From positions 1-51,457 of the forward strand of contig PEAD01000022.1 in NCBI GenBank assembly GCA_002753335.1: a stretch of DNA of 51,457 bases, given 5' to 3'. Below, one piece after another: positions 1,001 through 6,000 of this stretch. Under the pieces are notes generated by a model. The model ran no database searches. It was not told where the DNA came from and saw nothing but the letters and a program-made list of their open reading frames with translations. Each line of letters begins with the position of its first letter. Position 1 is the first letter of the stretch. This DNA comes from Nitrospirae bacterium MYbin3. Its GTDB lineage: Bacteria; Nitrospirota; Thermodesulfovibrionia; Thermodesulfovibrionales; Dissulfurispiraceae. Made by a program: the position numbers and the translations under genes.

Positions 1001-1135
1001 CAATCGGGCTTTTTAAAATCTTATAAATGGTGTAAATTATTACTGGAACTATGCATGCTGAAAATCAAGGTTAATATGTCCAAGATTTCACTTGACTTGC
1101 GTGAGTCTGCACTAAAATTCAAAATTGGAGGATAG

Positions 1136-1534
1136 ATGAACAATAACCATCAAGGTTGTTCATACAATGAGTCATTTCTCAGAAATACCAATTCACGGGA
1201 CCCTCGTTCCCCGGATCGGTAATGGCGTAGTAGTTTGCTTAAGCGATTCAAAGAACTGGGACAAAAGATGTCGCTTGACCATCATAGCCAAGGGGTGCTG
1301 ATTGTAGCAACCCTGTTTTTCTTGGTAATCAGGGCTTGGTGGTCACTTCTTGGTCTAATTTTATATGGAATCATGCACTTCCAATATGGTGGAACAGGTA
1401 CATTTCAGCATCCGTATAGGAATGATAGCCAAGAAGCGACAATTGCTGACGCGGTCTATTTAGTCATTGGTTTTTTTGGTTTAGTCATTATGCTTTGGGG
1501 GATAGCAAGACGTATTGCGGAAGTATTTGCATAA
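1136..1534 (+). pseudogene. Small membrane protein gene with an in-frame TAA at 1220-1222 (alternatively a shorter protein starting at 1235/1268)
   Basis: SD GGAGGA at 1127-1132 precedes ATG 1136, which is in the same frame as ORF 1235..1534 but separated from it by one TAA. The distal part has 2-3 hydrophobic segments. Confidence 0.5.
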
Positions 1535-1545
1535 TCGAACAAAAA

Positions 1546-1680
1546 GGGTCAATAACGCCCCGTGGTCTTGCCACGGGAACCGTGCGCAGTCGGGGGTGCA
1601 GGGCGTCGGAGCAAAGCGAAGACCCTTGCCGACCCACAGGGTCAACGCCCTGTGGTGTCGCCAGCGAGCGAAGCGAGTTT
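1546..1680. repeat. Cluster of GC-rich hairpins with an imperfect direct repeat (REP/MITE/IS-end-like)
   Basis: Hairpins CCCGTGG-tcttg-CCACGGG (1559-1577), GTCGG...CCGAC (1589-1633) and CCACAGGG-tcaacg-CCCTGTGG (1634-1655). Direct repeat gggtcaataacgccccgtggtcttgcca (1546) vs gggtcaacgccctgtggtgtcgcca (1639). GCGAGCGAAGCGAG at 1664-1677. Confidence 0.55.
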
Positions 1681-1870
1681 ATTTACATCAAGAAATTCGG
1701 CATAGATGCGCGCAAATTTGACCCGCCCCACATCAGTGTACCGCACTCAGGTTAGCATTTGAGCGGTTTGATGTCCTACCAGAACAATGGTCCAAATTGA
1801 AGTTGATAATTTTGTAAAAATTGACTGAAAGTTTTTAGCGAAAGTCCTTATTTTTTGTTGGAAGCAGATT

Positions 1871-2587
1871 GTGCGGATTAGTAGAGTATGCCGTGTAAAA
1901 CGTATGACTAGTCGGTTGAAGTCCGACCGTGGGAGTTCGGTAGCTCACCCACGTAGCTTGAGAAAGGTGCAAGGGGTAACCTGAAGCGCTAAGTTTTCTG
2001 ACAAAGGCTTCTATAAGGGAGTCGAGCAAACCTGTGGGTCGCAGCGAGAGCGAACCTAGATGTAGCCTCGAAACGTAAAATGGAGTTGTCGACCCTGTTC
2101 TACAAAGGGGAAGACCGCCGCATCTATCCTGACCATAACTACCGTAACCGATAGATGGACTTCCGGGGTATCAGGGGTGACACTCAGGGGCAGCCATACG
2201 ACAATGAACACGGGAGACCCTTGTCGATGCTGTGAGAGCAGCAACTGGTGGATATAAGAAAACGAAGTTTCACTAGGTCTGCAAGGGAGTCGGATTTGCC
2301 CATAGTACCGATATAATCCCAAAAGGACAACATAACCTCGGGAGAGGGAAGGGGCAATACCTTCATCATGCTTCTGAAAGAGAGACGGAAAGGAGATTGC
2401 GGTAACGCTATAAACTCCAAATGATTCCGAGATTTCTGGTGGGAGATATGCCAGAAGGCCAAGCGATAGCGAATGCCCCTGGAAGAAGATGATTGGAAAG
2501 CCGTATTCGGGAAAACTGAACGTACGGTTTGATGAGGGGGAACTGGAGATAGAGCATATTAGCCACTACGCCAGTTCTCTACTCTAC
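1871..2587 (+). ncRNA. Group II intron, ORF-less (IEP internally deleted)
   Basis: 5' GTGCG at 1871. Domain V AAGCCGTATTCGGGAAAACTGAACGTACGGTTT (~2498-2530) with AGC triad and AC bulge. Domain VI ends ...CTCTACTCTAC at 2587. Probable alpha-alpha' pair CGGTAG (1938-1943)/CTACCG (2139-2144). DIII-like GAGTCGGA...CATAGTACC...GGGAAGGGG. Domain IV is only ~100-120 nt with no RT ORF. Confidence 0.9.
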
Positions 2588-3014
2588 AGGCATTCGCATC
2601 CAATCAGCAGGAGCCTGAACTCTATCCTTTCCGCTGATAATCAATCAATATTTCTACCAAAAATTTCTAAAGGAAGTTTGGGCCGCAAAATCTTAATCGC
2701 TGAAAGACCGGTGCCGATATTTTCCAGAGACTATAAATATTGAAAAGAAATATTGATAGACAGTCACAACCTCACCGTTGCAAACTTCTGAGTTATTTTT
2801 TTGCTCATCTTATAACCCATTATAATTGAGTGATGATTACCCTCTATATTATGGAATATTGGGCATTTTTTAGGCCCTGAATTTTGCAATTATCTCCAAA
2901 CAACTTTATTTAAACTTTGAAAAATAAAGATTTTCATAACATATTGTTTTTATGTATAAATTAAATAATTACTACTATACAACTTTATTTTAAATGCACA
3001 TTTGGATGCTTCAT

Positions 3015-6000
3015 TCATTTGCTGTCACACCATTCGCGCGCATTTTGGAAAATTTTAAGCCATGGCGATGCTTTAAGGTTAGATTTCATATCTTCCGGCA
3101 TCCAGCCCCACTGCCATTTAAGAGCAACCCTTTCCGGGTGTGGCATCATTGCAAGATGTCTGCCGTCGGGGCTGCATAATCCGGCGATGCCGAGCGGCGA
3201 GCCGTTAGGATTGAATGGATACTTTTCTGTGACCTCTCCATTGTCGTCAACATATCTGATAGGCGCGAGCTTTTTTGATCTGACTTCATTTAGTATGGTT
3301 TTGTCCGGGAAGTGAGCGCGGCCTTCACCGTGCGCTGTCCATATTCCAAGAGTAGAGCCTTCCATGCCATGCAGCATAATCGAAGGGCTTTCGAGGATTT
3401 TTATTGTTGAAAATCTTGATTCGAACCTGCCTGACTTATTATGTATAAATCTGGGCTGCGACTTGCCGGCAATTCCTTGCCAAGGAACCCATCCGAGCAG
3501 CGCCGCAAGCTGGCAGCCGTTGCAAACACCCAGGCTGAAGGTGTCTGTTCTTTGATAAAACTTATGGAACTGTTCGTACAGCTTGTTGTTAAATCGTATT
3601 GTGCCTGCCCATCCTTTTGCCGAATCAAAAACATCGGCGTAACTAAACCCGCCTACAAATACAACACCTTTGAAGTCGTTAAGTGAAGCGTGTTCTTCTA
3701 TAAGATCGGTCATCGTAACATCCCATGAATCAAAGCCGGCCATGAAAAATGATGACGACATTTCCCTGTCACCGTTGCTGCCCTCTTCCCTGATTATCGC
3801 CACAGCTGGCTTTGTTTTTTTCTTGATGATTACCTCTGGAGTTTGTTCGGGCTCGAAGGTGACAACGTAATCAGGGCCTTTCCGGTCGTAATTTATCTCC
3901 TTCTCTTCAAGGACGCATTCCGGATTTGCCTGAAGCATTTCTAGATGATAGCTTGTCTCCTCCCATAATGCCCTGAGTCGGCGCATATCTTCATCCAAAA
4001 CAACTTCATCGTTTATGCTGAGTACAATCCTCTTTTGTTGAATAGTGTGGCCTATAATTGTGAAGGGCACAAATAGCTTGTCAAAGGCAGCCATGACATC
4101 GCTTTCCTTTTCGGTTTCGTACTCTATTACAAGACCGAGCTCTTCAGCAAAAAGCATGCGTATTGTGTCTTGCATGTTGATAATTTTCTTAGTGTATGAA
4201 AGCTCAATTTCGATACCGCAGTTGCCGGCAAAAGCCATTTCGAGCAATGTCGTAACAAGACCGCCGTCGCTCCTGTCATGTCCTGCAAGTATAAGATCCT
4301 GATCGATTAAATACTGAACAACATTGAAGGCATCCTTCAACTGCTGCGGGCTGTCCACATCAGGGCAATCATCTCCGACCTGTTTGTAGCAGTGGGCCAA
4401 AGAAGAGCCTCCGAGCCTGTTTTTTCCATTGCCTAAATCAACGTATATAAGGCTGCTTTTCCCGGGCATCTTTATATCAGGAGTCACAACTTTGGTTATG
4501 TCCGGACAGGAGGCGTATGCCGAAATCACGAGTGTTCCGGGGGATTTTACCGTTTCTGCATCGTCTGCGCCGTGTGCAACTTTCGCCGCCATAGAGAGGC
4601 TGTCTTTACCTCCATCAACCGCGATGCCCAGCTCGATCATCAAATCTTTCATAGATACTGCGGCATCATAGAGCTTTGCTCCCTCTCCCGGGAGCTTTGG
4701 CGCCCACATCCAGTTTCCGGAACATTTTATATCTCTCAGCGCTGTTATTCTCGCCCATACAATATTGGTCAAAGCCTCGCCAACACTCATCCTTGCCATA
4801 GCCGACGGGTCTATCAATCCCTTTATAGGCTGTTCGCCTATTGATATTGCCGCACCAGTATAAGCTTTGTCCGCAATAAAATGGCTTTGCGAAATCACCG
4901 CAACATTAGAAAGCGAAAGCTGAAGAGGACCTACGCACTGCTGTCTTGCGATAAGGCCAGTAACCGAGCGGTCCACTTTGTTGGTAAGAAATCTTTTTGA
5001 GCCAACAGATACCAGTTTTAACACTCTTTCTAGTGCGTCCATGATGGTTATATTGTCGGGTAGGTGCAGAGGCTGTATGTGGACAAACACTCTTTCGAGG
5101 TTGAATGTTTTTCTCGGCATCTCGCCGAGCACCTGATCAAGGTTAAGATTTACCGGGATTGAACTGTCTTCTTCATCAAAAAGAGTGATGTTTCCGTCTC
5201 CGGTTATTTTTCCTATAACAGCCACCGGAACCTTTTCTCTTGAACAAAGATCCTTGAACGCCCTTGCCTTGCTTTCATGGATCAAAAGCGCATCCTGTTC
5301 CTGATATTCGGCGCCCCAGATTTCAAGCACAGACAGTGTGTTATCGCCTATGATTATTTTTCTTATCTCGATTCTTCCGCCCGCAGGATAAATAATTTCT
5401 TTTACCACATTGCAGTTTCCGCCGGCGCCCTGATCATGAATACTGATGATAGGGTTGCTGTCGCCAAGTTCTACGCAGGTTCTTATGACCCTGTTGACCT
5501 TCTGCTCCATTTCTCGGTCGCCGCGCTGCACCGCATTGAAATCGAGCTCTTCGACATTCTCTCCCTGTATCATGCTTGATGCAGCGCCTCCGCCCATGCC
5601 TATCCTGTAGGCAGGACCTCCTATCTTGACCACCGCCATTCCTTTTTCTGGTTCGTTTTTAGCGATATGTCTGGCATCTATCTGCCCAACGCCGCCGGTG
5701 AACATTATAGGCTTCAGCCATTCACTGCGCTCTCCATCAGGAAGCCTCAGCCCGAAGGAGCGTGTGAAACCCTGAATAAGCGGCTCCCCGAATTTATTTC
5801 CGTAATCAGAGGCCCCATTGCTTGCATCTATAAGTATTTGAAGAGGAAGCGCCAAATTTTTCGGATACATAAGCGAGCCGTGCTCCCACTGCAGTGGGTA
5901 GTTGGGGAGAAATAGATTGCCTACGCAATACGCAGCGGTGCCGGCAACAACGAGAGAGCCTTTTCCTGTGGCATGAACATCTCTTATTCTCCCTCCGGTG

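Follow-up and report, generated by a model that had tools for sequence, protein, structure and literature searches.

Positions 1 to 51,457 of contig PEAD01000022.1 from Nitrospirae bacterium MYbin3 (this whole stretch of 51,457 nt is called the window) contain a group II intron that lacks its reverse-transcriptase gene. The element occupies 702 nt of the plus strand, from 1886 to 2587. Comparison with its relatives indicates that it is a IIB-like intron without an open reading frame (ORF), which is probably spliced and would be mobilized in trans by the reverse transcriptase (RT)/maturase of a full-length relative like that on contig C35 of the same genome. The original prediction, made from the letters of the window, had held that the ribozyme was kept and the RT lost. 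The comparison bears this out: an internal deletion within domain IV (DIV) fuses the start of the gene for the intron-encoded protein (IEP) to its end.

1886-2587, plus strand: ORF-less group II intron, 702 nt, GUAUG...CUAC (Rfam matches, comparison of copies, covariation in 20 ORF-less copies)

The Infernal/Rfam check that had been proposed for this prediction was run over the whole window at gathering thresholds, and it returned two matches only, both on the plus strand and both above gathering: RF02003 group-II-D1D4-4 (84.2 bits, 1909-2049) and RF00029 Intron_gpII, which models domains V and VI (48.1 bits against a gathering score of 40, 2496-2587). A permissive scan of 1100-3000 (E<=1) found the same two intron models and no family for the flanking repeat or for a nearby GC-rich stretch (both described below). 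No RT-type ORF was found inside the intron.

Boundaries, insertion site and exon recognition

The intron had been thought to begin with the GTGCG at 1871 and so to be 717 nt long. Its true start is the GUAUG at 1886, 15 nt further 3', and 1871-1885 belong to the 5' exon, including the intron-binding site 1 (IBS1). (Some results below are numbered from 1871; in that numbering, position 16 is window position 1886.) BLAST homology to other copies always begins at position 16. In genome G087, three of the four full-length copies found have the same first bases, last ~120 nt, and BLAST figures as one another, but the 10-15 nt upstream of position 16 are completely different. Among 36 distinct 5' junctions the intron starts with G(U/C)(A/G)UGCCGUG, while the pentamer at -15 is merely a loose nUGCG-like motif. 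In the consensus folds the first helix of domain I begins 5 nt past 1886, a normal spacing. When the GTGCG was tried as the 5' splice site, no intron segment paired consistently with the bases preceding it in six copies. The splice site is placed at 1885/1886 because the start of homology, the covariation of exon-binding site 1 (EBS1), and the empty insertion sites all agree on it. Instead of GUAUG, itself a variant of GUGYG, a few copies start with GCAUG or GUGUG. G1 and G5 never vary, C takes the place of U2 in a few copies, and the third base is A, not G. At the other end the predicted AC is indeed present, as the intron closes with ...CUAC at 2587. The ligated exon given earlier, ...GCAGATT/AGGCATT (a slash marks the junction), must be replaced by ...TTAGTAGA/AGGCATT, and the RNA is predicted to read ...UUAGUAGA/AGGCAUU. 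It follows for annotation that a perfect GTGCG can be a decoy; finding the real 5' end needed the comparison of copies.

The intron is inserted into an intergenic repeat of ~270 nt.

1814-1885, plus strand: 5' exon, the 5' part of the ~270-nt intergenic repeat (nhmmer, hmm 4-75); contains the GTGCG at 1871-1875
2588-2786, plus strand: 3' exon, the 3' part of the repeat (nhmmer, hmm 76-274); the first base, A2588, is IBS3

The nhmmer profile of the repeat splits on the window exactly at 1885/2588. Elsewhere in the genome the repeat is intact at C27:47492-47758(-), C59:45730-45996(-), and C41:1131-1402(-), and partial at C57:25272-25393 and C8:6563-6661; in BLAST all five of these copies start exactly at base 2588. 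The intron-less paralogs read ...GTAGA/AGGCATTC... across the site, and upstream of the empty sites the sequence is ...(U)UGUAGA/AGGCAUUCGC..., with no intron. The insertion is assigned to 1885/2588 because these intron-less copies read straight across it. It had been stated that the intron interrupts no recognizable gene; none is interrupted, yet what is interrupted is a repeated intergenic element. The repeats on C59 and C27, and a diverged copy that hosts the C35 intron, each follow a same-strand gene at a distance of ~40-150 nt (those on C59 and C27 start ~40 nt past the stop codon). In the sister species, G001, there is no match to the intron; its contig C140 holds the 5' flank, including GTGCGGA...TAGA, and then continues into unrelated sequence. 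A scan of 1100-3100 for promoter and terminator consensus sequences gave counts at the level of shuffled sequence. Further upstream, in an otherwise AT-rich intergenic region, lies a GC-rich stretch (1560-1680) that contains a pair of short hairpins (ccgtggtcttgccacgg; cacagggtcaacgccctgtg). BLAST finds no second copy of it in the genome, Rfam gives nothing for it at E<=1, and a contig of sequencing run X3 covers 1600-1661.

The way in which the copies recognize their exons can be read from covariation between intron and flank.

1881-1885, plus strand: IBS1 (GUAGA), the final five exon bases, pairing with EBS1
2099-2103, plus strand: EBS1 (UCUAC), in the terminal loop of a domain I hairpin; covaries with the exon bases 5' of the splice site
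2171, plus strand: EBS3 (U), intron nt 286; partner of A2588 (IBS3), the base that opens the 3' exon

In 86-96% of 51 distinct copies, depending on the position, exon bases -1 to -5 are matched by intron nt 214-218, and each position shows 3-4 kinds of Watson-Crick pair; reading of the copy table gives an IBS1-EBS1 match in 27 of 30 copies. The window's GUAGA-UCUAC is thus replaced elsewhere by CUGUG-CACAG, GUCGG-CCGAC, GGUUC-GAACC, or UGACC-GGUCA. Intron nt 286 pairs with 3' exon position +1 in 93% of the 29 copies whose 3' exon is known (T-A in 16, A-T in 7, C-G in 3). The window copy itself has five of five IBS1/EBS1 pairs together with the EBS3/IBS3 pair. Judged from these pairings, EBS3 is of the IIB type and the ribozyme is classed as IIB-like. 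A delta-delta' arrangement of the IIA type was rejected in favor of EBS3, as the base 5' of EBS1 stays U whether position +1 is A or T. A candidate EBS2, the CCGCAU 3' of the EBS1 hairpin facing exon GUGCGG, suits the window and some G087 and G089 copies by eye, but it does not covary in the 51 copies. Exon bases T-14 and G-13 are simply conserved (35 and 33 of 51 copies, respectively).

Introns of class IIC are characterized by a short domain V (DV) with a CGC-type triad, an IBS1 of 3-4 nt, and insertion just after a terminator or attC stem. The present introns are like that class in having a compact RT/maturase of ~430-445 aa without an endonuclease (En) domain, in the EBS3/IBS3 pair, and in showing no detectable EBS2. 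Membership in class IIC was nevertheless rejected: the triad is AGC, the lower helix of DV is of full length, IBS1 measures 5-7 nt instead of 3-4, and no hairpin stands directly before the site.

Ribozyme fold and the lost gene

All six domains can be recognized in the window copy, and the ribozyme is complete.

1891-2213, plus strand: domain I (consensus folds; RF02003 covers 1909-2049)
2214-2291, plus strand: domain II (helices 19-22 of the consensus)
2292-2361, plus strand: domain III (helices 23-25 of the consensus)
2363-2492, plus strand: domain IV, of which 130 nt are left; its basal stem is UCAUC (2363-2367)/GAUGA (2488-2492), helix 26
2498-2530, plus strand: domain V, canonical, with AGC triad and 2-nt bulge (RF00029; compensatory pairs)
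2534-2584, plus strand: domain VI, with a bulged branch-point A at 2581

The earlier impression of a canonical DV and domain VI (DVI) was correct. DV folds as the canonical two-helix hairpin (z-score -4.4), and A2581, 7 nt from the intron end, is unpaired both in the minimum free energy (MFE) fold and in the consensus folds. Domains I-III (DI-III), whose failure to fold had been named as grounds for abandoning the prediction, take their places in a six-domain consensus fold obtained with 12 mixed copies and again with 20 ORF-less copies. The latter 20, all distinct and complete, were folded jointly (mean column identity 80%), and 97.2% of the cells form standard pairs. Among 209 pairs, 51 are changed on both sides, as compared with 20.8 +/- 2.9 in 500 shuffles, none of which reaches 51; the shuffles take no account of relatedness and the fold itself comes from this alignment, which makes a control in which the partners were slid by 1-3 columns the fairer one; its 9-16 double changes are still far below 51. 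Every one of the six domains has such changes, as has the DIV remnant, including both its basal stem and the DIVa hairpin (helices 26-30). This pattern argues that the whole fold, DIVa included, has been under selection after the ORF was lost.

Variation among the copies is found in both DV and DVI. Two ORF-less copies of 746-747 nt (L093:860-1605(-) and L103:430-1176(+)) carry ~50 nt of extra sequence in distal DVI, and the copy in genome G027 has AAC for AGC in DV. The 3' strand of DV reads ...ACGGAAUUGAU in five of six full-length copies and ...ACGG-UUUGAU in all ORF-less copies (one with AUUG). The full-length copies with this variant are L002:138-257(-) (G000:C35, G000 being the window's own genome), L022, L040, L044, and L046, and they were compared with window 2498-2530. 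In the MFE fold of the variant, the A and G of the triad lie in an internal loop, and an extra helix takes in the IEP stop codon; DV of the C35 copy falls below the RF00029 gathering score. The view that the C35 DV is damaged was discarded, as the GGAAUUG variant is common to five of the six full-length copies, including the multiple copies of G087. The variant is probably functional, because several G087 copies that carry it are identical in the sampled stretches.

Domain IV holds what is left of the IEP gene.

2370-2446, plus strand: DIVa hairpin (helices 27-32); holds GGAG 2392-2395, TTG 2397, and stop TAA 2403-2405
2397-2464, plus strand: decayed first ~23 IEP codons (alignment with the C35 copy and its 445-aa ORF)
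2465-2468, plus strand: deletion junction with GATA filler; ~1.25 kb of the IEP gene gone relative to C35
2469-2492, plus strand: last 8 IEP codons and stop, TGA 2490-2492 (alignment with C35 and other copies)

The Shine-Dalgarno-like GGAG noted previously at 2392 is present (2392-2395), and it is followed by TTG-CGG-TAA, a start-codon remnant whose frame is closed at the third codon. The degraded IEP start that had been recognized by its 'ICQKAK' is confirmed by the C35 alignment, in which this stretch lies against ...LYRKAKQ of the intact IEP, as is its fusion to an IEP-end remnant before DV. The basal stem of DIV shows a C-G to U-A compensation relative to the full-length C35 copy. A surviving TTCTGG/CCAGAA hairpin had also been proposed. 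The two segments exist, but in the 20-copy consensus they have other partners: CCAG 2451-2454 pairs with CUGG 2479-2482 (helix 33), and UUCU pairs upstream in helix 28, where four of four pairs show double changes. For DIVa pair 494/579, 11 copies have UA and the other 9 have CG. DIVa is the high-affinity binding site of the IEP (maturase), and the DIVa of the window is presumed to be such a site. That it is kept with no gene left to translate agrees with a need for an IEP provided in trans.

Full-length relatives, mosaic structure and the ORF-less lineage

The search for sister copies and for an IEP-encoding parent, which had been recommended as a BLASTN check, found both in the window's own genome (66 contigs, 2.93 Mb, 93.7% complete). 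The full-length sister lies at C35:360-2305(-). It is 88% identical to the window copy over positions 1-594 and 81% over 609-717 (counted from 1871), with ~1.25 kb in between. Its IEP is an uninterrupted ORF of 445 aa with matches to RVT_1 (2.5e-41) and GIIM (2.4e-14) and a YADD motif; Pfam gave no match to an En domain in this protein. The nearest solved relatives are the class IIC RTs 7uim and 6ar1 (GsI-IIC RT). A further copy breaks the end of contig C12 and is 99% identical to C35 over the 113 nt available. The genome also has a second RT-like gene (L006, C63:23873-24607(-)), an open frame of 359 aa that is 33% identical to IEP residues 60-317.

When the domains are compared separately, the window copy is a mosaic, with DI-III like the resident full-length intron and DIV-DVI like the ORF-less lineage. 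Compared with C35, it is 94.4% identical over DI-III, 72.5% over DIVa, and 84.5% over the final 119 nt; compared with an ORF-less copy from another family, the three figures are 89.5, 89.6, and 92.4%. In the DI-III tree the window copy is sister to the full-length intron of its own genome (SH-aLRT 96). An ORF-less clade forced on DI-III (12 against 17 rows) is rejected with a delta lnL of 189 (p-AU 2.5e-36); with the same 16 rows that were used for the DIVa tree it is rejected as well (5 changes, p-AU 5.8e-5). The tree of DIVa plus the last 119 nt places the 10 ORF-less rows on one side and the 6 full-length rows on the other with 1 change, at a support of 86/82 that is not starred. In addition, DIV-DVI of the ORF-less copies has derived characters of its own, namely TGA rather than TAA as the stop, a DV with GG-UUUG in place of GGAAUUG, and a DIVa loop that is distinct. 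The simplest reading is that there were one or a few ancestral deletions, and that DI-III was afterwards exchanged with co-resident autonomous introns. Such an exchange would explain why the window copy and C35 have the same EBS1 (UCUAC) and occupy the same position of the same repeat family. An alternative to it is repeated, independent deletion at nearly identical break points; the junction filler varies by 4-16 nt, so that a few independent deletions are possible.

DNA searches detected the intron's kin in 8 of the 61 relatives sampled, in 18 of the family's 68 genomes, and in 50 of the 317 genomes in the order (the order-wide search scored two candidates per genome). The order contains 12 distinct ORF-less copies, eleven of ~695-714 nt and one of 594 nt. 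The eleven have a common architecture, in which the IEP start runs to ...GCCAAG(C) and is followed by 4-16 nt of filler, GCGAANGCC...GAAGAUGA, and DV. The shorter form (L009:1503-2096, G040:C16) has lost DIVa as well and retains only an IEP-tail remnant before DV. A degenerate pattern for the junction occurs at 47 loci in contigs of a one-genome-per-species reference set, all 47 of which are similar to the window intron by BLAST, and on at least 120 metagenome contigs; in viral contigs it had no match. An absence of related copies, which had been foreseen as an argument against the prediction, is therefore not what was found. By their record titles, the 47 loci belong to Thermodesulfovibrionales/Nitrospirota and to metagenome-assembled genomes (MAGs) of Syntrophales/Thermodesulfobacteriota/'delta proteobacterium', with contigs 0.15 to 3.6 Mb long in some cases. 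(A few are in Brocadiaceae, Planctomycetota, Bacteriovoracaceae, and Pseudomonadota MAGs, on short contigs, and may be binning errors.) Several genomes hold three or four copies. The flanks differ from copy to copy, and the EBS1 of each suits its own exon. Consequently, the element kept inserting after the deletion, and the ORF-less copies do not mark one inherited locus.

The protein partner is less evenly found. An uninterrupted cognate IEP (at least 75% identity) was detected in none of the 10 other ORF-less-bearing genomes of the order, a count that is weak evidence, as MAGs often lose repeated elements. G027 (98% complete, 5 contigs), G170, and G290 have no cognate match; in G188 there is one of 79%, split into two pieces, G232 and G204 yield fragments, and only RTs of <=49% identity were found in the others. 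Because of this count, it may be that the ORF-less lineage often outlives its IEP partner. Two full-length relatives are themselves broken up. That at G077:C1 ~913476-915357 (L032/L038) matches C35 up to 1332 and resumes at 1345 ~1.9 kb further on, which suggests an insertion in the IEP gene, possibly a nested element; in G089:C2 (L020, L035) the 5' part (to position 867) and the 3' part are 13 kb apart.

Independent assemblies also match the window copy. In run X2, a contig of 1550 nt covers 1847-2589 and shows 33 differences; in run X4, one covers 2165-2514. Two contigs of the sediment metatranscriptome run X1 match 1921-2166 (1 difference) and 2231-2409 (0 differences), at >=99% identity. 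The window copy, or one identical to it, is present in this RNA library, because the X1 contigs are closer to the window copy than C35 is. No X1 contig crosses an exon-intron border or the ligated exon, and the flanks at 1688-1819 and 2700-2900 are without cover in all four runs; in both cases the contig data are uninformative either way.

Probable mobilization in trans, its alternatives and its significance

The window intron is likely to be a non-autonomous retroelement, for which the following course of events is proposed. The intron would be transcribed with its host repeat by read-through, without harm to any gene; read-through is proposed because copies of the repeat lie just downstream of genes elsewhere in the genome. 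Folding and splicing would be aided by the resident 445-aa IEP of the C35/C12 type, bound at DIVa. The intron would then enter new sites by EBS-guided reverse splicing into DNA that matches EBS1 (5-7 nt) and EBS3, and would be copied by the RT of the borrowed IEP. Introns whose IEP has no En domain prime from replication intermediates, and such priming is proposed here because the C35 IEP is without this domain. Finally, the resident full-length intron may have traded DI-III with the window copy, whether by recombination, by gene conversion, or by a template switch of the RT.

Several observations weigh against this reading of the intron as an active, trans-mobilized element. The GUAUG 5' end departs from the GUGYG consensus, and no EBS2/IBS2 partner was found: none of the intron columns varies in step with exon positions -8 to -16 across the 51 copies. 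Only one ORF-less copy is assembled in the genome, and at least two perfect-looking sites, on C59 and C27 (...GTAGA/AGGC...), remain empty, which argues against high current activity. The DIVa of the window and that of the resident IEP-encoding copy share only 72.5% identity, so the resident IEP may not recognize the former. The lack of an uninterrupted cognate IEP in the 10 other genomes counts here too, and some ORF-less copies, such as that of G027, look dead by their sequence. The X1 contigs are internal to the intron and could stem from carry-over of DNA.

Most of these points could also be claimed for a decaying relic, that is, an intron that was inserted once, is no longer spliced or mobilized, and has kept its features for lack of time. 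The single copy, the unfilled sites, the diverged DIVa, the missing partners elsewhere, and the damaged DV of G027 all count in its favor, and non-mobile derivatives seem to be short-lived in bacteria according to the portion of a 2015 review that deals with them (PMC4424553). This explanation is nevertheless considered unlikely. The window copy has a canonical DV, a branch-point A, five of five IBS1/EBS1 pairs, and the EBS3/IBS3 pair; an intact IEP is present in the genome, and the contigs of >=99% identity come from an RNA library. At the level of the lineage, the 51 doubly changed pairs, some of them in DIVa, point to selection that continued after the deletion.

The original prediction had offered a non-autonomous retroelement and a domesticated ribozyme as its two options. 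The former is favored, as the copies occupy different sites and their EBS1 and EBS3 fit their own flanks. Under the latter, the intron would be retained because it does something for the host, such as acting as a regulatory or processing RNA within an intergenic transcript. A fold conserved without a coding function would suit such a role, as would the ORF-less copies in genomes with no detectable cognate IEP (e.g., the 98% complete G027), and C.te.I1 provides a precedent for existence without an IEP in the review's account of it (PMC4424553). Domestication is judged very improbable all the same: flanks are unrelated between genomes and there is no orthologous locus, the sister species G001 has no copy and a homologous 5' flank that is free of the intron, the intron sits in a repeat that is intron-less in its other copies, and an EBS1 that tracks each insertion site is the behavior of a retroelement. 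There is, lastly, the chance that a full-length intron was collapsed during assembly of the MAG, a concern already raised with the prediction. The genome is a MAG of 66 contigs in which another copy breaks a contig (the end of C12), but an artefact would have to recur at the 47 loci in other reference genomes, of which some lie on contigs 0.15 to 3.6 Mb long, and on the at least 120 metagenome contigs, and the DIV-DVI module of the ORF-less copies has derived characters of its own. As the deletion junction is spanned by the independent contigs of X2 and X4, collapse is regarded as excluded for practical purposes.

As a presumably trans-mobilized element, the window intron is of a known kind; its spread is unusual, and the lineage is of note for its breadth, its persistence, and its mosaic relation to autonomous partners. 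The closest parallel is Thermosynechococcus (T.) elongatus, in which 17 ORF-less TeI3 introns share one common deletion that left N- and C-terminal remnants of the ORF, have good EBS/IBS pairings, and were mobilized by IEPs in trans in E. coli assays, as set out by Mohr, Ghanem and Lambowitz in 2010 (PMC2882425). Like TeI3 as described there, the window intron has an internal DIV deletion, N- and C-terminal IEP remnants, a remnant frame that is disrupted, EBS and IBS that match its flanks, and full-length IEP-encoding relatives in the genome (PMC2882425). The TeI3 break points are reported to be identical in all copies, and most of the insertions lie outside genes, as does that of the window intron (PMC2882425). 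A driver IEP acting in trans is the TeI3 mechanism, and it is adopted, by analogy, for the window intron (PMC2882425). Unlike TeI3, which belongs to one genome and whose mobility is experimental, the present lineage extends over many genomes and is described from its sequences. By record titles and long contigs it reaches at least Nitrospirota and Thermodesulfobacteriota, whereas TeI3 was described in one cyanobacterial genome (PMC2882425). Also unlike TeI3, as far as that description extends, an intact cognate IEP is often not found alongside, and the C35 IEP is without an En domain by Pfam.

A second comparison is with the general picture drawn by Zimmerly and Semper in 2015, in whose overview ORF-less introns of bacteria are rare, are nearly always accompanied by a related IEP-encoding intron, and are probably short-lived (PMC4424553). 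As in the catalogue of Simon et al. (2008; RNA 14:1704) in the form summarized there, in which genomes with such introns also hold close IEP-encoding introns whose protein may act in trans (PMC4424553), the window copy has its full-length relative in the same genome. The 47 reference loci and at least 120 metagenome contigs of a single form are unlike the rare and short-lived introns of that overview (PMC4424553). C.te.I1 of Clostridium tetani resembles the G027 copy in being ORF-less with no cognate IEP in the genome, in the review's summary (PMC4424553); it is unlike the window intron in that it is reported to be located in a gene, to undergo alternative splicing, and to self-splice robustly in vitro, whereas the window intron is intergenic and has a cognate IEP. 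In the portion of a 2022 survey that treats them, ORF-less introns are named as a category that has increased in certain genomes (PMC8919778). Among the top-ranked full-text matches on ORF-less bacterial group II introns, no description of a cross-genome lineage of the present kind was found, which is not proof of absence.

It is quite possible, if short of probable, that the ORF-less copies form an old lineage comparable to the short interspersed nuclear elements (SINEs) or miniature inverted-repeat transposable elements (MITEs). One ORF-less DIV-DVI module, selected for its ribozyme and its maturase site, would then have spread over orders and at least two phyla, parasitizing the RTs of autonomous relatives and swapping DI-III, and with it target specificity. 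ORF-less introns that are served by a shared protein are the usual model for the path to introns of the spliceosomal type. The lineage constitutes a natural data set for how long such introns persist, how relaxed the specificity of the IEP must be, and whether recombination re-arms them with new target specificity.

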